Assembly: GCA_965216905.1 (NCBI GenBank)
Contig: OZ244213.1
Span: 1,210,735-1,274,734 of the forward strand
Length of the DNA stretch: 64,000 nucleotides
Reading direction: 5' to 3'
DNA from: Acidimicrobiia bacterium
GTDB taxonomy: Bacteria > Actinomycetota > Acidimicrobiia > Spongiisociales > ZC4RG35
A program made the translations under genes and the position numbers. This document shows, piece after piece, positions 47,058 to 54,491 of the stretch. Every line of letters starts with the position of its first letter. Position 1 is the first letter of the stretch. The notes beneath the pieces are model-generated. The model saw nothing but the letters and a program-made list of their open reading frames with translations, was not told the origin of the DNA and searched no databases.

Positions 47058-47128
47058 GCGGGTGTAGTTCAATGGTAGAACACGAGCTTCCCAAGCTCGG
47101 AACGAGGGTTCGATTCCCTTCACCCGCT
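47058..47128 (+). tRNA. tRNA-Gly (anticodon CCC).
   Basis: Cloverleaf read manually. Acceptor GCGGGTG/CACCCGC, D-arm GTTC-AATGGTA-GAAC, anticodon stem CGAGC/GCTCG with loop TTCCCAA, and T-arm GAGGG-TTCGATT-CCCTT. 71 nt, with no encoded CCA. Confidence 0.88.
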
Positions 47129-47165
47129 CGAACGTGACCCTCCGACCACCCATCCGGACGCGCCG

Positions 47166-47726
47166 ATGATCTTCTCCGACCGTACGATTCACGCCGCCCT
47201 CGACGAGGGTCGGATCGAAATCGACCCCCTCGATCGGTCCTTCATTCAACCGTCCAGCGTCGACCTCCGGGTCGACGCCTCGTTCCGGGTGTTCGAGAAC
47301 CACCGATACCCCCACATCGACCCTCGCGCCGCCCAAGAGGATCTGACCACCGCGGTCACCGTCCCGGACGACGAGCCGTTCATCCTCCATCCCGGAGAGT
47401 TCGTCCTCGGGTCGACGCTCGAACGAGTCCGCCTCGGCGAGGACGTCGTGGCTCGGCTCGAGGGCAAATCGAGTCTCGGGAGGTTGGGACTGTTGATTCA
47501 CTCGACCGCCGGCTTCGTCGATCCCGGATTCGACGGGTACCTCACGCTCGAGCTCTCCAACGTCGCCAACCTCCCCATCGCCATCTACCCGGCGATGCGC
47601 ATCGGCCAGATCAGCTTCTATCAGATGACGACGACCGCCCAGCATCCGTACGGCAGCAGGGAAGCCGGCTCGAAGTATCAGGGTCAGCGAGGACCCACGC
47701 CCAGCCGCGCACACGTCGACTTCTGA
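47166..47726 (+). CDS. dcd: dCTP deaminase.
   Basis: 186 aa. PSSVDLRV, and GFVDPGFDG...TLEL, the dUTPase-fold Dcd motifs. Confidence 0.92.
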
Positions 47727-47926
47727 ACCTCCGCCCGCGTTGCTCGGCAAGCAGCGGATCGGCCGCGGAACGTCGTGCGATGGGCGGATGAGATTTCTCG
47801 GTCGTTCGCTCAAGAATCTGCGAGGTGCGGCCGATAGGAGTGGTACAAAGCGAATCGCACACCAAAACTCTCCTCGGAGTCCCTCCCTTCCTCCGAATCT
47901 CCCTCCCCACTGGTGAGCGATACGTC

Positions 47927-47966
47927 GAACGAGCGGCCTTGCCCGGGCCGCTCGTTCTCTTTTTCC
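47927..47966 (+). terminator. Canonical rho-independent terminator within the 312-bp dcd / SLH-protein intergenic region.
   Basis: GAACGAGCGGCC-TTGCCCG-GGCCGCTCGTTC, a 12-bp perfect stem, followed by TCTTTTTCC. It lies 200 nt after the dcd stop and 72 nt before the next start. Confidence 0.65.
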
Positions 47967-48038
47967 GGCACGCGTATCTGGCGAACCCTTCCCGGCTCTG
48001 AGAACAAGACAACGGAGGCGTCGAGCGAGGAGACAGAC

Positions 48039-49484
48039 ATGCGACGGATGGGCACGATGCTGGTGGGAGCGATCATCATGGCGCTGGCGGTCCCCGCCAT
48101 GGCCGCCCCGGTCTCACCGGTGGGTACGTTCACCGACGACAACAACAGCGTCCACGAAGCCGACATCGAAGCCATCGCCACCGCCGGCATCACCCGCGGC
48201 TGCAACCCACCCACCAACGACAACTACTGCCCAGACGACCCCGTCACCCGCGCACAAATGGCCAGCTTCCTCACCAGAGCACTCGGCCTCACCCCCATCA
48301 CCCCCACCCCACCCAGCGGAACCTTCACCGACGACGACACCAACATCCACGAAGCCGACATCGAAGCCATCGCCGCCGCCGGCATCACCCGCGGCTGCAA
48401 CCCACCCACCAACGACAACTACTGCCCAGACGACCCCGTCACCCGCGCACAAATGGCCAGCTTCCTCACCAGAGCACTCGGCCTCACCCCCATCACCCCC
48501 ACCCCACCCAGCGGAACCTTCACCGACGACGACACCAACATCCACGAAGCCGACATCGAAGCCATCGCCGCCGCCGGCATCACCCGCGGCTGCAACCCAC
48601 CCACCAACGACAACTACTGCCCAGACGACCCCGTCACCCGCGCGCAAATGGCCAGCTTCCTCACCAGAGCACTCGGCCTCACTCCGATGCCGCCGCCATC
48701 GGTGAGCGATGCGCATCTGTCGCGAGTGTTCTTCTTCTCGCCGCTGGCGCCACCCTCCACACCGGACGGGCCGTATCTGGCGACGGTCGCCCGGTACGGC
48801 GAGTCCGCCGCCACGCCCGACGACCTGCTCGACATGCTCCTCGACGGTCCGTCCGCATCCGAGGTGGCCGACGGGTTCTCGACCAACATCCCGGAAGGGG
48901 TGGTCTCCAACGAACCGGTGGCAGTCGCCGGCGGGACGGCCACCGTCGACCTGTCGGAGAACTTCGACGACGGGGGTGGCAGCGCCGCGATGCTGGGTCG
49001 ACTGGCCGAGCTGACGTTCACCCTCACCGGTCTTCCCACCATCGAGCACGTGCAACTGGAGCTGGACGACGTCCCGGTGGCGGTCTTCTCCTCGGAGGGC
49101 ATCCTGATACCGCCCGGCGGCCTCGACCGGGAGTACTTCCTCCCGACCGAAACCGAGGAGGGACCGGGCGTGGCGCCGGACATCATGCCGGAGGCGCCCG
49201 CCCACGGCGAGGCGGTGGAGAGCCCGATCGAGGTACGTGGACTCTCTCGAACCTTCGAAGCCACCGTCGAGTGGGAACTCCTCGATGCCGGCGGCGCCGT
49301 CATCGCCCAGGGCTTCGAGACCACGGGCAGCGGGACGGCAACGATGCTCCCGATGGAGATCGACATTCCGTACGTCACCGCGGGGATCCAGATGGGCACC
49401 CTGAACCTGTGGTGGACATCGCCGGCGGACGGTGCCCCGGCCCGCTCCGATCAGCGCTCGGTCCGGGTGTGGCTGACCCCTTGA
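48039..49484 (+). CDS. Secreted protein with three tandem SLH-like repeats, followed by GerMN-like and Gmad2-like (Ig-like) domains.
   Basis: Signal peptide MRRMGTMLVGAIIMALAVPAMAAP. Three copies of about 65 aa each (FTDDDTNIHEADIEAIAAAGITRGCNPPTNDNYCPDDPVTRAQMASFLTRALGL). The C-terminal two domains resemble spore-germination GerMN/Gmad2 folds. Confidence 0.7.
   Translation: MRRMGTMLVGAIIMALAVPAMAAPVSPVGTFTDDNNSVHEADIEAIATAGITRGCNPPTNDNYCPDDPVTRAQMASFLTRALGLTPITPTPPSGTFTDDDTNIHEADIEAIAAAGITRGCNPPTNDNYCPDDPVTRAQMASFLTRALGLTPITPTPPSGTFTDDDTNIHEADIEAIAAAGITRGCNPPTNDNYCPDDPVTRAQMASFLTRALGLTPMPPPSVSDAHLSRVFFFSPLAPPSTPDGPYLATVARYGESAATPDDLLDMLLDGPSASEVADGFSTNIPEGVVSNEPVAVAGGTATVDLSENFDDGGGSAAMLGRLAELTFTLTGLPTIEHVQLELDDVPVAVFSSEGILIPPGGLDREYFLPTETEEGPGVAPDIMPEAPAHGEAVESPIEVRGLSRTFEATVEWELLDAGGAVIAQGFETTGSGTATMLPMEIDIPYVTAGIQMGTLNLWWTSPADGAPARSDQRSVRVWLTP
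48120..48700. repeat. Tandem direct repeat of 195 bp, about three copies; copies 2 and 3 are identical.
   Basis: The minus-strand ORFs 48224..48418 and 48419..48613 translate to the same 64 aa, so the underlying DNA is identical over at least 2x195 bp. Copy 1 is slightly diverged. Confidence 0.85.
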
Positions 49485-49517
49485 CCCGCGGCGGTAGCCA
49501 CCCACGCTGAAACCCGG

Positions 49518-49609
49518 GCACAACCCACCGGCACAACCCACCCGGCACAACCCACCGGCACGACCCTGCTGGGAGTGAAGGACCGCGATCGGACCTCACT
49601 CCCAGCGGG
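49518..49609. repeat. 3.5 tandem copies of a 13-14 bp unit (GGCACAACCCACC), followed by a hairpin terminator shared by the convergent SLH-protein and dnaB genes.
   Basis: cgGGCACAACCCACCGGCACAACCCACCCGGCACAACCCACCGGCACGACCC, then CTGGGAGTGA...TCACTCCCAG inverted repeat (49567-49609). Confidence 0.6.
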
Positions 49610-49612
49610 TTG

Positions 49613-50962
49613 TCAGTCCCGGCCGATGTTGGCGAACAGGGTGTACTCGGGCATGAACGTCATCTTCACGACGCCGGTCGAGCCCGCCCGATGCTTCGCC
49701 ACCATCACCTCGGCCACTCCCCGGTCATCGGACTGCTCGTTGTAGTACTCGTCGCGATAGATGAAGATCACGACGTCGGCGTCCTGCTCCAACGAACCGG
49801 ACTCGCGGAGATCGCCGAGCCGGGGCCGCTTGTCTTCTCGGCTCTCGAGGTTCCGGTTCAGCTGGCTCACGGCGATGATCGGGACGTCGAGTTCCCGGGC
49901 CAGGTTCTTGAGCGAGCGGGAGATCTCGGCGATCTCCTGCTGGCGGTTCTCACGGCTCGACCCCTGCATCAGTTGGAGGTAGTCGATGACGATCAGATCC
50001 AGCCCGTGGCGTCGCTTCAGCCGGCGCGACTTCGCACGAATGTCGGTGACGGTCACCACGGGCGAATCGTCCACGAAGACAGGAGCCTTGTAGAGCCTTC
50101 CGGCGGCGTCGGTGAGCCTCGGCCAGGCCATGTCGCCGATCTGTCCGGTCTTCAGCTTCATCGAATCGATGCGTGCCTTGGAACACAGCATGCGCTGTGC
50201 GACCTCTTCCTTGGACATCTCCAGCGAGAACACAGCAACCGGTCGTCCCTGATCGACCGCCACGTTCATGGCGATGTTGGCGGTGAGGGCGCTCTTCCCC
50301 ATGGCCGGACGGGCGGCGATGATCACCAGGTTGGCCGGGTGCAGCCCCGTCAGCTTCTTGTCGAGATCGGTGAATCCGCTGGAGAGGCCGGTGATGTCGG
50401 AGCCCTGGGCTTCGAGCCGTTCCAACTCTTCCAACGTGGAGAAGAACAAGGGCCCGATGGGCTGCATCGTGTCGCCCACCTTGCGCCCGGCGACCGACAG
50501 GACGGTCTGTTCGGCCCGATCCAAGACCGTGTGGATCTCGTCATCGAGGCGGAACGCCAGGTCGGTGATCGAGGAGCCCGCCTTCATGAGGTGACGCCGC
50601 TGGCTGTGCTCCTCAACGATCCCGGCGTAGAACTCGACGTTCGCCGCCGACGGGACGATGTCGAGCAGCCGGGTGATCCCCGCCACTCCGCCCACTCGCT
50701 CCAGCTGGCCGACCCGGCGAAGCTCTTCGGCCACCGTGATCGCATCGATCGCCTGGTTGGCGTTGAACAGGTCACGAATCGCGGTGTAGATCGCCTGATG
50801 TGCCGGGAAGTAGAAGTCTTCAGGGCTCAGCTTGTCCATGACGTCGCTGGCGGCATCGTTGGAGAGCAGGATCGAGCCGATCACCGACTCCTCCGCCTCT
50901 ACCGAGTGGGGCGGGACCTTCGCTCCGGCGCGCTCGCCGCGATACTCCTGGGCCGTCGTCAC
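49613..50962 (-). CDS. dnaB: Replicative DNA helicase.
   Basis: 449 aa. Walker A ARPAMGKSAL, the DnaB N-terminal domain (PHSVEAEESVIGSIL), and no intein. Confidence 0.93.
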   Translation of the reverse strand: MTTAQEYRGERAGAKVPPHSVEAEESVIGSILLSNDAASDVMDKLSPEDFYFPAHQAIYTAIRDLFNANQAIDAITVAEELRRVGQLERVGGVAGITRLLDIVPSAANVEFYAGIVEEHSQRRHLMKAGSSITDLAFRLDDEIHTVLDRAEQTVLSVAGRKVGDTMQPIGPLFFSTLEELERLEAQGSDITGLSSGFTDLDKKLTGLHPANLVIIAARPAMGKSALTANIAMNVAVDQGRPVAVFSLEMSKEEVAQRMLCSKARIDSMKLKTGQIGDMAWPRLTDAAGRLYKAPVFVDDSPVVTVTDIRAKSRRLKRRHGLDLIVIDYLQLMQGSSRENRQQEIAEISRSLKNLARELDVPIIAVSQLNRNLESREDKRPRLGDLRESGSLEQDADVVIFIYRDEYYNEQSDDRGVAEVMVAKHRAGSTGVVKMTFMPEYTLFANIGRD

Positions 50963-51206
50963 GCTCAGCTCCTCCCATTGTCACGGTGCCCGGGATGGCA
51001 TGTCCTTCATACCGGACCCGTATGACAGAACGCGTCAACGCAGCCGGCCGAGGGGAAGTGCGGCCACCGTACCCGTCCCAACCAGAGCGCGGAAACGCGA
51101 TAGCTCGACGGGGACTCATCGGTCCTCCCCGGCCGTCCCGCGATTCAACCGAGCCGAGTCGGGTACGCCATCGACGAACGGCTCGCGAGAGAGAAGGAGG
51201 CCCGCC

Positions 51207-51785
51207 GTGGCGGACAACACGGTTTCGGAGGCGAAGCGAGAAGCGGCGGAGGTCAAGGACCTCGCCCAGGAGGAAGCAAGCAAGGTCAAGGACCAGGCAC
51301 TCGACGAGGCTCGGGACATCGCCGATGAGGCCCGCGAACGATCTCGGCGCCTGGCCGACCAGGCCGGACGGCGGGTCCGCTCGGAGGCCGAAAGGCAAGC
51401 GGCCGTGGTGGCCTCGGGCGCACGCCGGTTGAGCGGCGAACTTCGCAGCATGGCCAACCGACCCGAAGGCCCCGAGGGAATGGCAACGGCCGCGCTGCGA
51501 GGGGCGTCGGAGTGGATCGAGGGACGGCTCGCACGGTATGAGCAGGGCGGACTGGAAGGGGTGGTGAAGGACGTCGAGCGGTTCGCTCGGCAGCGCCCGG
51601 CGGCATTCCTCGCCGGTGCGGCGGCCGCCGGCGTGGCGGTCGGTCGGGTGCTCCGCAATCGCCCCGACGGCTCGTCACCATCACCAGACGTCGACTCGCC
51701 GTCCAACATCGCGGCCGCACCGGCCGGGGCGCCGGATCTCCCGGCATCGTCGGACCCGGTCGTCCGCCCCGGGGGAACCGAATGA
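51207..51785 (+). CDS. Coiled-coil, membrane-associated protein (alanine/glutamate-rich, YtxH/phasin-like) of unknown function.
   Basis: GTG start preceded by GAGAGAAGGAGG. The N-terminus KREAAEVKDLAQEEASKVKDQALDEARDIADEARER is a likely coiled coil. Hydrophobic segment AAFLAGAAAAGVAVG near the C-terminus. Confidence 0.55.
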   Translation: MADNTVSEAKREAAEVKDLAQEEASKVKDQALDEARDIADEARERSRRLADQAGRRVRSEAERQAAVVASGARRLSGELRSMANRPEGPEGMATAALRGASEWIEGRLARYEQGGLEGVVKDVERFARQRPAAFLAGAAAAGVAVGRVLRNRPDGSSPSPDVDSPSNIAAAPAGAPDLPASSDPVVRPGGTE

Positions 51786-52189
51786 CAATGGACTCGGGCC
51801 GACAGGATGAGAAGTCGCTGCCGCAACTCATCACGCAACTGGCCGATCAGGTCGGCGACTTGATCTCGACCGAGATCTCCCTCGCCAAGGCCGAGATCAC
51901 CGCCGAGATCAGGAAGTCCGGACGGGCAGGAGGGATGCTCGGAGGCGCGGCCGTGCTCGGCAATCTCGCAGTCCTGCTCTTCGGGCTCGCGGCCGCCTGG
52001 GGATTGGCAGCGATCCTCGACATCGCCGTCGGTTGGGGTTTGCTCATCGTGGCGACCGTCGTCGCCGTGTCGGCGGGCGGCCTCTTCGCGGCCGGCCGAA
52101 ACACCCTGAAAGAGGTCGACCCGGTTCCCGAGCGGGCGATCGAAACCCTGAAGGAGGTCCCATCGTGGACACGAGAGCAGAAGAACTAG
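51782..52189 (+). CDS. Holin-X-like protein (putative actinobacterial holin superfamily III; annotated elsewhere as phage holin family protein).
   Basis: 135 aa. An N-terminal amphipathic region (LPQLITQLADQVGDLISTEISLAKAEI), then two TM helices (GMLGGAAVLGNLAVLLFGLAAAW, LLIVATVVAVSAGGLFAAG). The start overlaps the upstream stop (ATGA). Confidence 0.6.
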   Translation: MTMDSGRQDEKSLPQLITQLADQVGDLISTEISLAKAEITAEIRKSGRAGGMLGGAAVLGNLAVLLFGLAAAWGLAAILDIAVGWGLLIVATVVAVSAGGLFAAGRNTLKEVDPVPERAIETLKEVPSWTREQKN

Positions 52190-52752
52190 AGCGCCGGGCA
52201 CGCCGGCAACGCTCCGACGTCGAGGAAACCATCGAAGAGATCGGAGATCGCGTCAGTCCCCGCGGGGTCTACGAGCGTCAGCGGCGAAACGTCCGTCAGA
52301 CCATTGGGGGATGGAAGGAGTCGGTGATGGGCTCACCGGCCTACGACTCCAACCACGTGTCCGACGCCGTGTCGAGTGAGAGCGGCTTGCTCGACCGGGC
52401 CGGCGACACGTTGGCGGAGGCACCCGCCGCAATCGAACGTCACACCCGCGGCAATCCGCTCGCCGCTGGGCTCATCGCGTTCGGAGCGGGTCTCCTCGCC
52501 GCCTCGGTGGCGCCACCGAGCGATCGTGAACGCCGGATGGTGGCACAGCGTGAGACACAGGTTCGCCGGGTTGCCGAGGACGTGAAGGACGCCGCCCAGG
52601 AGGTGGGGTCCGACCTGAAGGACGAGGCCAAGCGCCATATCCAAGAGGTGAAGGAGTCGGCCGCGGATTCGCTCGAGACGGTGAAGGACGAGGCTTCCGA
52701 CCGCGCCAAATCGATCAAGGACAAGGCAGAGAAGGCGGCCGATCGGATGTGA
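52165..52752 (+). CDS. DUF3618-like protein (coiled-coil, one TM, then a KE-rich C-terminal repeat region).
   Basis: GTG start preceded by AAGGAGG. EELERRARRQRSDVEETIEEIGDRVSP, TM NPLAAGLIAFGAGLLAASV, then a C-terminus with repeated DxKDxAxE-like units. Overlaps the holin-like gene by 25 nt. Confidence 0.6.
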   Translation: MDTRAEELERRARRQRSDVEETIEEIGDRVSPRGVYERQRRNVRQTIGGWKESVMGSPAYDSNHVSDAVSSESGLLDRAGDTLAEAPAAIERHTRGNPLAAGLIAFGAGLLAASVAPPSDRERRMVAQRETQVRRVAEDVKDAAQEVGSDLKDEAKRHIQEVKESAADSLETVKDEASDRAKSIKDKAEKAADRM

Positions 52753-52849
52753 GCTCTTCCGGGGTGGGTCCTCGCCACCCGAGCGATCCACCCCGGAGCC
52801 CATCCCTCGCGGCCACGTTGGAACAGACGCGGCGTCGCCGGAGTTTCGG

Positions 52850-53986
52850 CTAGTCCCCGCTCTTTCCGAAGCCGGTCGGACCTCGCCGACGCTCCCAGGG
52901 TGTGGGGCCGGTGGCGATTCGGGAACGCATCTGCCCCATCCGGGGCTCGATGACGAACTCGACGAACACGAGCTTCAGGATGGCGGTGACCGGCAAGGCC
53001 AAGAGCGCGCCGGCCACCCCGGCCAGCGCCCCGCCCGCCAGGAAGGCGACGATCACAGCCGGCGGACTCAGGTCCACGGTGTGACGCATGATCTTCGGAA
53101 CGACGAGGTAGTTCTCGAGCTGCTGATAGAGGACGATGAAGGCGAGGGAGGCGACGAACGCTTCGAGTCCGTGGGTGGCAGCCACTCCGAGTACCGCCAC
53201 CGAACCCAACACCACGCCGACGACGGGGATGACATCGGTGAACCCGACCCAAGCCGCCAGGGCGACTGCGTAGTCCAGGCCGATCACCTGGAATGCCGCG
53301 AACGACACCACGAACGCCACCAACGAGACCAGCAGATTTCCGGCGACGAAGCCCGAGATTCGGTCGACCGATTGGTTCAACACGTGGAGGACGTCGGGCC
53401 GGTCCTCGCGCTGCACGAGCCGGAGGAGGAACCGCTTCATGTCGGGGAACGCATACGAGAAGTACGGCGTCAGGATCCCGACGGTGACGAGATTCACCAC
53501 TCCGGCTCCCACGCTTCCGAGCGTGGCGACGGCGACCGACTCGTTGTCCGCCACCAATGACCCCGGGTCGAGCCGGCCCAACACCTCGCCGATTGGACCA
53601 CCACCGGCTTGGAGATCGTCGAACAGCACGGGTAGGGCGTCGACTGCATCAGCGAGCTGGGTGACGAGGGCGGGGACGACGGCCACCAAGAAGCCTCCCA
53701 CCACCACGCCGCCGGCGGCCATGACGATCGCCAGGGCCATCGCTCGGGACAGTCCCCGGTGTTCAAACCATGCGAGCGCCGGCTGGACGCCCAAGGCGAG
53801 AACGAAGGATGCGGCGACGATCAGGAGGATGGGCCGCAGCTCGAGCACGAGCAGGAGCACGACGACCACCCCGATGAGTACGACGCCGATCTTCAACCAG
53901 TAGCTGATCGGCGGCCAGCCGAGGTCGCCTCGCATCTGGCCGCCCGACCGCGTGGTCTCATCGGCTTTGGGGGCATCGTCGGGCAC
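52850..53986 (-). CDS. AI-2E family transporter (UPF0118 / PerM-like).
   Basis: 378 aa with 8 TM helices. FVVSFAAFQVIGLDYAV...VIPVVGVVLG...LALPVTA is typical of this family. Confidence 0.85.
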   Translation of the reverse strand: MPDDAPKADETTRSGGQMRGDLGWPPISYWLKIGVVLIGVVVVLLLVLELRPILLIVAASFVLALGVQPALAWFEHRGLSRAMALAIVMAAGGVVVGGFLVAVVPALVTQLADAVDALPVLFDDLQAGGGPIGEVLGRLDPGSLVADNESVAVATLGSVGAGVVNLVTVGILTPYFSYAFPDMKRFLLRLVQREDRPDVLHVLNQSVDRISGFVAGNLLVSLVAFVVSFAAFQVIGLDYAVALAAWVGFTDVIPVVGVVLGSVAVLGVAATHGLEAFVASLAFIVLYQQLENYLVVPKIMRHTVDLSPPAVIVAFLAGGALAGVAGALLALPVTAILKLVFVEFVIEPRMGQMRSRIATGPTPWERRRGPTGFGKSGD

Positions 53987-54038
53987 GCCCGATCGAGTAC
54001 CCGCCGTGACGAGATTGAATCCCGGGACCGGGTTTCGT

Positions 54039-54491
54039 TCAGGCGGGGATCACGTCCAGCGTGATCGGGAACTCCACCTCCGGATGGAGCTTCAGCCACA
54101 CCTCGTGCAACCCGATCGCCTTGATCGGCGTACGGATGTCGACCGATCGCTTCTCGACCTCGACACCGGTGAACCGAACGATCCCTTCGACCACGTCGTT
54201 GGTTCCGATCGATCCGTAGAGCTTGCCCTCGTCTCCGGCCTGGGCGGCGAGCACGACCCGGGTCCCGGCCAACTGGGTGGCGATCCGCTCGGCCGCCTCG
54301 CGGGCGCTCCGATCCGCCACCTCCCGGGCCTCCCGCAGGCGTTCGGCCTGCGTCAGCGCACCCTCGGTGGCCTTGATGGCCTTCTTCTTCGGCAGCAGGA
54401 AGTTGCGGGCATACCCGTCCGACACGTCCACCATGTCGCCCCGCTTTCCAAGCGTGCCGACGTCTTCGAGGAGAATCAGCTTGATGCTCAT
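54039..54491 (-). CDS. rplI: 50S ribosomal protein L9.
   Basis: [38 protein letters not shown], the classic L9 N-terminus. Confidence 0.93.

Follow-up and report, generated by a model that had tools for sequence, protein, structure and literature searches.

A conserved three-gene membrane module of Actinomycetota centred on a YqjE-family protein

The genome of an Acidimicrobiia bacterium (NCBI GenBank assembly GCA_965216905.1) carries, on a stretch of 64,000 nucleotides of contig OZ244213.1 that we refer to as the window, three overlapping genes, here named g1, g2 and g3. We find that this triad recurs in constant order and strand across Actinomycetota, and that its central gene encodes a relative of Escherichia coli YqjE. 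Together with the gene overlaps, the repeat architecture of the outer proteins and a promoter-like motif, this makes it reasonably probable that g1-g2-g3 form a single stress-induced operon for a stoichiometric inner-membrane complex, the actinobacterial counterpart of proteobacterial yqjD-yqjE-yqjK. The link to YqjE was not made in the preliminary description of this DNA, whose own interpretation is partly supported by the evidence below: a coupled, stress-related membrane module agrees with the data, but holin-like permeabilisation and a special meaning of the site between rplI and dnaB do not. The three genes are as follows.

51207-51785, plus strand: g1, GTG start with GAAGGAGG 6 nt upstream, product of 192 amino acids (aa)
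51782-52189, plus strand: g2, ATG start within an ATGA that overlaps the g1 stop by 4 nt, product of 135 aa
52165-52752, plus strand: g3, GTG start with GAAGGAGG 7 nt upstream, overlapping g2 by 25 nt, product of 195 aa

The preliminary description had placed three overlapping plus-strand genes at 51207-52752, and every detail of it that could be checked (coordinates, starts, overlaps and flanks) proved correct. In addition, identical 192-, 135- and 195-aa products are recorded in a public protein collection, indicating that an independent gene caller picked the same boundaries for all three genes.

Evidence that these genes belong together comes from their conservation. Eighty related loci were found through g2 alone, with one genome per species, and their six-frame open reading frames were searched with the window proteins; the loci come from Acidimicrobiales, Streptomyces, Actinoplanes, Thermobifida, Glycomyces, Amycolatopsis, Nonomuraea and other taxa. 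In this set g1 was present in 78 loci, g2 in 80 and g3 in 79, and the complete g1-g2-g3 arrangement was found in 78 of 80, always in the same order and on the same strand. One of the two exceptions is cut at a contig end, and the other is an Acidimicrobiales variant. When the 80 neighbourhoods were clustered all against all, g1, g2 and g3 were the sole conserved genes, and independent precomputed gene calls on metagenome contigs returned the same triad. The junctions between the genes are conserved as well: g1 and g2 overlap by 4 nt (ATGA) in 49 of 78 loci, with most of the others within 3 nt, and g2 and g3 overlap by exactly 25 nt in 69 of 78. These observations clearly bear out the earlier proposal of a co-conserved module, and they support its description as a translationally coupled membrane module with overlapping starts. 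The genomic position of the triad is a different matter. The preliminary description had presented the module as inserted at the rpsF-ssb-rpsR-rplI-dnaB locus, but this site is no property of the module, since rplI, ssb and dnaB lie within 6 kb of the triad in 0 of the 80 related loci. The triad thus behaves as a portable operon, and its rplI-dnaB position is particular to this genome and carries no wider meaning. Some genomes hold more than one copy, as two triads each were seen in Actinoplanes sp. NPDC023801 and in the Acidimicrobiales metagenome-assembled genome DATARN01 (L005 and L040; L054 and L055), and one further locus has an additional g2-like gene on the opposite strand (L050:1323-1820, minus strand).

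The identity of the central gene is the firmest part of the comparison with Proteobacteria. The g2 product matches PF07332, 'Putative Actinobacterial Holin-X', over profile positions 2-115 of 116 (E 5.5e-27; 94.6 bits, where the cutoff is 28.4). This family (Phage_holin_3_6 / YqjE, COG5393) also takes in E. coli YqjE itself, which matches the profile at E 3.5e-21 and 75.8 bits. An hhalign comparison of the g2 alignment with YqjE matched the two over their full length (124 columns, E 3.9e-5), and many g2 homologues carry the JGI label YqjE. We regard g2, on these profile matches, as a PF07332 member and a relative of YqjE, with firm homology to the central yqj gene. The AlphaFold2 (AF2) model of g2, with a predicted local distance difference test score (pLDDT) of 79, contains helices at 13-79, 83-111 and 117-134, which form an extended amphipathic helix at the N-terminus, a transmembrane hairpin and a short C-terminal helix carrying a conserved PVPE..ETLKE..W motif. 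Kyte-Doolittle analysis places the hydrophobic segments at 49-85 and 69-106.

Upstream of g2, g1 represents a large family that lacks a Pfam model. No family was found for it in Pfam, NCBIfam or PHROG, with Pfam also tried using homologues, while a full-library profile search recovered 2,411 clusters at 50% identity (E<=1e-30). Source annotations within this family are scattered among YjbJ/CsbD, V-ATPase subunit H, ElaB/YqjD and DUF3618. The protein begins with 11-residue amphipathic repeats, modelled as a helix of about 80 residues, and continues through the motif F-A-R-x-R-P directly into a short Gly/Ala-zipper hydrophobic helix (residues 131-150). A disordered, Pro-rich tail extends 40-80 aa beyond this anchor, and the protein is hence not strictly tail-anchored. 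Invariant residues of the family are F126, A127, R128, R130, P131, G142 and R147. In the AF2 model (pLDDT 76) helices span 3-83, 90-114, 116-129 and 131-150 and are followed by the disordered tail; the predicted template modelling score (pTM) of the long-helix models is only 0.33-0.42. The segment 'RRRP...FL' of g1 was considered as a Tat signal and dropped, as the motif adjoins a C-terminal helix and the sole mention of a 'holin' in the Tat tail-anchor paper is unrelated.

The third protein, g3, scores 22.6 bits against DUF3618 (PF12277), an N-terminal helix of about 47 residues, just under the gathering score of 24.9. All 24 of 24 aligned g3 orthologues match the same profile, with a best E of 9.4e-16, and g3 is therefore assigned to the DUF3618 family by orthology. 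Its basic DUF3618 helix leads into an invariant G-N-P, a glycine-zipper membrane helix (97-117) and an acidic C-terminal region composed of about six 11-residue amphipathic repeats. The charge separation is a property of the family: 91% of members have a net positive charge over the first 60 aa, and 92% have a net negative C-terminal region. Hydrophobicity autocorrelation at lag 11 reaches +0.53 in g3, with a family mean of +0.48, and both g1 and g3 show a clear period of 11 residues. The N-terminal repeats of g1 and the C-terminal repeats of g3 are alike (hhalign E 5.7e-6, with reciprocal tblastn matches within the window). Each of the two outer proteins thus combines a proline-initiated glycine-zipper helix, predicted to lie in the membrane, with 11-residue repeats of the type found in late embryogenesis abundant (LEA) proteins and apolipoproteins. 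Profile matches of g1 and g3 to apolipoprotein, YtxH, LEA_4 and CsbD are weak, far under family thresholds, and reflect repeat composition. Candidate relatives in the PDB were set aside for a similar reason, as the three family profiles gave compositional helix matches only; these included mycobacterial ATP synthase subunit b for g1 (8e-5), designed helical repeats, apolipoprotein A-I and SHERP. A published list of Streptomyces coelicolor tail-anchored proteins (PMC3087755) holds no sequence like the g1 or g3 anchors.

The region upstream of g1 contains a promoter-like motif of the SigB/SigF/SigH type; the published SigH consensus is GTTT-N~15-GGGTA (PMC11205660). The same motif recurs further along in the window.

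51142-51166, plus strand: promoter-like motif of SigB/SigF/SigH type, GATTCAA-N12-GGGTAC; its -10 element ends 41 nt upstream of the start codon of g1
53997-54021, minus strand: second GATTCAA-N12-GGGTAC copy, ending 10 nt ahead of the GTG start of the AI-2E family permease gene

The motif at 51142-51166 fits the SigH consensus with one mismatch. Among the related loci, a SigH-type motif (<=1 mismatch over nine core positions) lies upstream of g1 in 30 of 78 (38%), as opposed to 2.6% of control windows drawn at random from these loci. The extended pattern GATTCAA-N12-GGGTAC has exactly two matches in the window and 0 in 100 shuffles; it was set post hoc from these two sites, both of which an a-priori consensus scan had already found. 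No sigma-70-like promoter was found within 50900-52900. A published experiment in Actinoplanes SE50/110 concerns a likewise annotated and probably corresponding operon: SigH overexpression strongly raised ACSP50_4921-4923, annotated as DUF3618, Holin-X and a protein of no assigned function and described as belonging to the 'same operon', and likewise strongly raised ACSP50_3380-3383 (PMC11205660). Several Actinoplanes loci among our 80 carry the same triad. The stress-related role put forward in the preliminary description fits both the motif and this induction of a likewise annotated operon. In about 16 Streptomyces loci (L069:7058-8113 and about 15 others), a gene for a YihY/BrkB-like membrane protein lies directly 3' of g3, an arrangement that mirrors ACSP50_3383 in the SigH-induced Actinoplanes cluster.

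From the gene order, the overlaps and the repeat architecture we infer how the three products might assemble, which topology they adopt and what they do biochemically. Transcription of the triad as one mRNA would start from the motif at 51142-51166 under a SigB/SigF/SigH-type alternative sigma factor, and the 4-nt and 25-nt overlaps would couple translation so that the three proteins are made in matched amounts. In the membrane, g2 would form a helical hairpin, its two termini facing the cytoplasm, and serve as the hub, with the proline-initiated glycine-zipper helices of g1 and g3 packing on its Gly/Ala-rich hairpin. The g1 protein would then present a cytoplasmic arm of about 125 residues of 11-mer repeats and direct its Pro-rich tail outward. 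For g3, the basic DUF3618 helix is predicted to be cytoplasmic and the acidic 11-mer array is probably on the outer face, a placement that follows from its charge distribution under the positive-inside rule. Repeats of this LEA-, apolipoprotein- and YtxH-like kind may bind and stabilise membrane surfaces, or may tether cytoplasmic partners such as ribosomes, as YqjD does. The triad would act under osmotic, desiccation or stationary-phase stress and not as a lysis holin.

Two species provide examples of the proteobacterial operon that guides this interpretation. In E. coli K-12, yqjD-yqjE-yqjK is tightly packed, and yqjK begins 11 nt before yqjE ends; the product of yqjD is a coiled-coil DUF883 protein anchored at its C-terminus, that of yqjE the PF07332 protein, and that of yqjK a small membrane protein. 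YqjD, ElaB and YgaM are controlled by RpoS, anchored by their C-terminal tails, bind the 50S subunit and inhibit translation, and the conserved proline that starts the glycine-rich membrane helix of YqjD-type proteins matters for function (10.1101/2024.08.16.608256). In Pseudomonas aeruginosa, expression of the homologous operon PA3040-3042 rises in stationary phase and under envelope stress, and its overexpression does not inhibit growth (PMC11302039). A profile built from YqjD, ElaB, YgaM and close homologues was compared with the g1 family; its sensitivity is limited, as the search for YqjD homologues gave only enterobacterial sequences of >=80% identity. The g1 anchor aligned with the C-terminal glycine-zipper of DUF883, proline included, at hhalign E 1.3e-4 and a probability of 54% over 29 columns, and one g1 homologue bears the JGI label ElaB/YqjD. 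The link to the yqj operon, as judged by these alignments, is firm for the central gene and architectural for g1 and g3, with the anchor match of g1 suggestive only.

Several points weigh against the favoured interpretation. The match between g1 and YqjD is weak, since its 29 columns fall in a compositionally biased membrane segment, and none of 24 g1 members gave a Pfam DUF883 match, the N-terminal domain included. Profile comparisons detected no similarity of g3 to YqjK or YqjD (hhalign E 0.28 for YqjK). The hydrophobic stretch of g1, at about 15-18 residues, falls under the 19-residue Kyte-Doolittle threshold, which leaves it uncertain whether g1 spans the membrane. The loci were picked by two motifs of one g2 subfamily, and the co-occurrence rate of 78 of 80 is that of this subfamily, not of all PF07332. 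On the regulatory side, a simple scan found the promoter motif in just 38% of loci, and the ACSP50 genes were matched to the triad by annotation and not by sequence.

A narrower form of the same interpretation is membrane-tethered ribosome hibernation, in which g1 or the Arg-rich N-terminus of g3 would bind ribosomes in the manner of YqjD, ElaB and YgaM and keep them silent at the membrane in stationary phase, with g2 as the platform. This proposal draws on the Proteobacteria, where yqjE- and yqjK-like neighbours, in a synteny centred on YqjE, define the YqjD archetype (10.1101/2024.08.16.608256), and on the resemblance of the g1 anchor to DUF883_C, with the functionally important proline retained. 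The basic N-terminus of the g3 family is in keeping with it, as is the placement of the operon beside the rpsF-ssb-rpsR-rplI cluster in this genome, although proximity to ribosomal genes does not extend to any of the 80 related loci. Moreover, the arm of g1, 125 aa of acidic 11-mer repeats with a net charge of about -6, is unlike the short N-terminus of YqjD; Pfam profiles did not detect a DUF883 N-terminal domain in the window protein or in family members; and Actinobacteria are absent from the phyla listed in the DUF883 survey (10.1101/2024.08.16.608256). On balance we think hibernation unlikely. The possibility that Actinobacteria have an unrecognised equivalent of the YqjD/ElaB hibernation system, made up of a YqjE homologue and two anchored proteins that look unrelated (the g1 family and DUF3618), with LEA-like arms that protect the membrane and silence membrane-proximal ribosomes under desiccation, osmotic or stationary-phase stress, is similarly doubtful. 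If true, it would give YqjE a role as a conserved membrane hub and would assign functions to two very large orphan families.

The Acidimicrobiales variants bear on another alternative, in which the triad is an adaptor or anchor for variable cargo and its core, g2 together with the N-terminal DUF3618 helix, docks a fused domain to the membrane, with amphipathic repeats as the cargo in this genome and beta-propeller enzymes in others. In L052:3828-5537, L084:6381-8177 and L086:1916-3712 a GSDH-type beta-propeller follows the DUF3618 N-helix within one protein of about 570-600 aa. The DUF3618-propeller fusions of L052 and L084-L086 follow g2 with the 25-nt overlap kept, and in L084-L086 an NHL/GSDH propeller gene stands in place of g1. 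This suggests that g2 and the DUF3618 helix are the constant pair. The variant was seen in few loci, however, and partners of the repeat-protein type are found in 78 of 80. We therefore give the adaptor only a slim chance of being the general function, and it is in any case compatible with a YqjE-centred membrane complex and does not exclude one.

Equally improbable, in our view, is that g2 is a holin-like permeabiliser or a non-lytic export pore that oligomerises into lesions, with g1 and g3 as antiholin-like regulators. The appeal of this idea lies in the Pfam and TCDB name, 'Putative Actinobacterial Holin-X', and in the form of g2, which with its small size, two transmembrane segments and charged termini resembles a class II holin; such lesions would serve stress-induced lysis, protein release or depolarisation. 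It could also accommodate the growth inhibition of E. coli by YqjE overexpression (as cited in PMC11302039) and the wrinkled, deformed cell surface of the Actinoplanes strain overexpressing SigH (PMC11205660), whereas PA3041 overexpression had no growth effect (PMC11302039). The searches found no phage link. No PHROG family was found for g2; tblastn against 50,697 phage genomes/records gave no match at E<=0.01; IMG/VR contigs contained no relatives; and comparison of the g2 model with the BFVD predicted viral structures gave nothing significant (best E 1.1). The 80 neighbourhoods show no conserved lysis gene, endolysins included, beside g2, and what surrounds it is a chromosomal operon with fixed partners, conserved phylum-wide. 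Scans of the triad against PADLOC defence models produced only marginal coiled-coil matches (ZorA 9e-4, LeoBC 4e-3, about 14-16 bits), and an NCBIfam scan only weak coiled-coil matches. The absence of phage context noted in the preliminary description is thus upheld, while its term 'holin-like' reflects a family name, shared by E. coli YqjE, and the 'holin' label is a database name without support here. Nor did we find support for the membrane permeabilisation or export role that had been suggested; the repeat architecture points instead to tethers that bind the membrane surface or ribosomes.

The features that flank the triad in the window are listed below.

49613-50962, minus strand: dnaB, flanking the triad
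52758-52797, strand not assigned: GC-rich hairpin, from the RNA fold, between the convergent g3 and permease genes
52850-53986, minus strand: gene for an AI-2E family transporter (PF01594, E 2.4e-44)
54039-54491, minus strand: rplI, then rpsR, ssb and rpsF

The base composition of the dnaB-rplI insert is no different from its surroundings. Folding of 52745-52850 gave -58.4 kcal/mol (z = -3.8), a stability that none of 200 shuffles reached; the hairpin at 52758-52797 is probably a bidirectional terminator that lacks a T-tract. The second promoter-like motif stops 10 nt short of the permease GTG, and the permease mRNA is accordingly expected to be leaderless or nearly so. The identical motifs before g1 and the permease gene suggest that the two convergent units are co-regulated in this genome, and by its motifs the whole dnaB-rplI insert looks like a small co-regulated stress island. 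The AI-2E permease, which the preliminary description had noted beside the three genes, shares the promoter motif with the triad in this genome but is not a conserved partner: a permease homologue near the triad occurs in 1 of 80 loci.

Other observations concern the neighbourhood and not the triad. In the same intergenic region as the g1 motif, 51066-51096 on the minus strand holds a perfect GTTT-N18-GGGTA that faces dnaB at a spacing above the typical one, and this site may be a chance match or a stress-responsive dnaB promoter. Beyond dnaB, a plus-strand gene at 47913-49484 contains a 195-nt tandem repeat at 48129-48682 (2.8 copies, 98% identity) that encodes repeated SLH domains, and its product also has Germane and Gmad2 domains; the near-identity of the copies suggests recent duplication or gene conversion. 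Between this gene and the 3' end of dnaB lies a short 13/27-nt tandem repeat at 49512-49566 (GGCACAACCCACC, about 4 copies). A tRNA-Gly(CCC) gene at 47058-47129 on the plus strand is situated just upstream of a dCTP deaminase gene (47166-47726).

The annotation of g2 has consequences beyond this genome. 'Phage holin family protein' sits on thousands of actinobacterial chromosomal genes, and the label misleads, as in the Actinoplanes SigH study. To view the triad instead as a stress operon built around YqjE ties three orphan families (the g1 family, PF07332 and DUF3618) to an experimentally tractable proteobacterial system. If g2 is a hub that docks glycine-zipper-anchored partners, this would likewise account for yqjE being the constant syntenic neighbour of DUF883 genes.

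Among known systems, class II phage holins and the TCDB 'Hol-X' entries share with g2 a small size, two transmembrane segments and charged termini, and this is the origin of the database name. What sets g2 apart from phage holins is that it lacks phage-encoded relatives and a neighbouring endolysin, while it has an extended amphipathic helix at its N-terminus and constant partners on the chromosome. The membrane-anchored general-stress proteins with amphipathic repeats (B. subtilis YtxH/CsbD/GsiB type, group-3 LEA proteins and exchangeable apolipoproteins) have 11-residue amphipathic helical repeats in common with the triad and a stress-sigma regulon, to which the triad probably belongs too; unlike the triad, their genes are not encoded beside a YqjE-like partner. 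The Actinoplanes clusters ACSP50_4921-4923 and ACSP50_3380-3383 have the same annotations as the triad and are described as one operon. They are known solely as entries in the transcriptome table of the SigH overexpression study, where they were read as holins (PMC11205660).

The closest parallel in architecture is provided by yqjD-yqjE-yqjK and PA3040-PA3042, which have three overlapping or abutting genes in the same order with the PF07332 gene in the middle. Their first gene encodes a helical protein that ends in a proline-initiated glycine-zipper anchor, as is similar in g1, and their third gene, which begins within the end of the YqjE-like gene, codes for a small membrane protein, as is similar in g3. 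The yqjD operons are under stress or stationary-phase sigma control through RpoS, and the triad, judging from the motif, appears to be so through a SigB/H-type factor. The differences lie in the outer genes and the host. The g1 protein is twice the length of YqjD, has LEA-like 11-mer repeats and a putative extracytoplasmic Pro-rich tail, and gives no Pfam DUF883 match; the third gene of the triad encodes a DUF3618 protein whose C-terminal region carries the repeats, where the yqj operon has YqjK (PF13997); and the host phylum, Actinomycetota, is not in the published DUF883 survey. The triad most likely represents a variant of this known operon type, a YqjE-centred stress operon in which the central gene is shared with Proteobacteria and the partners differ.

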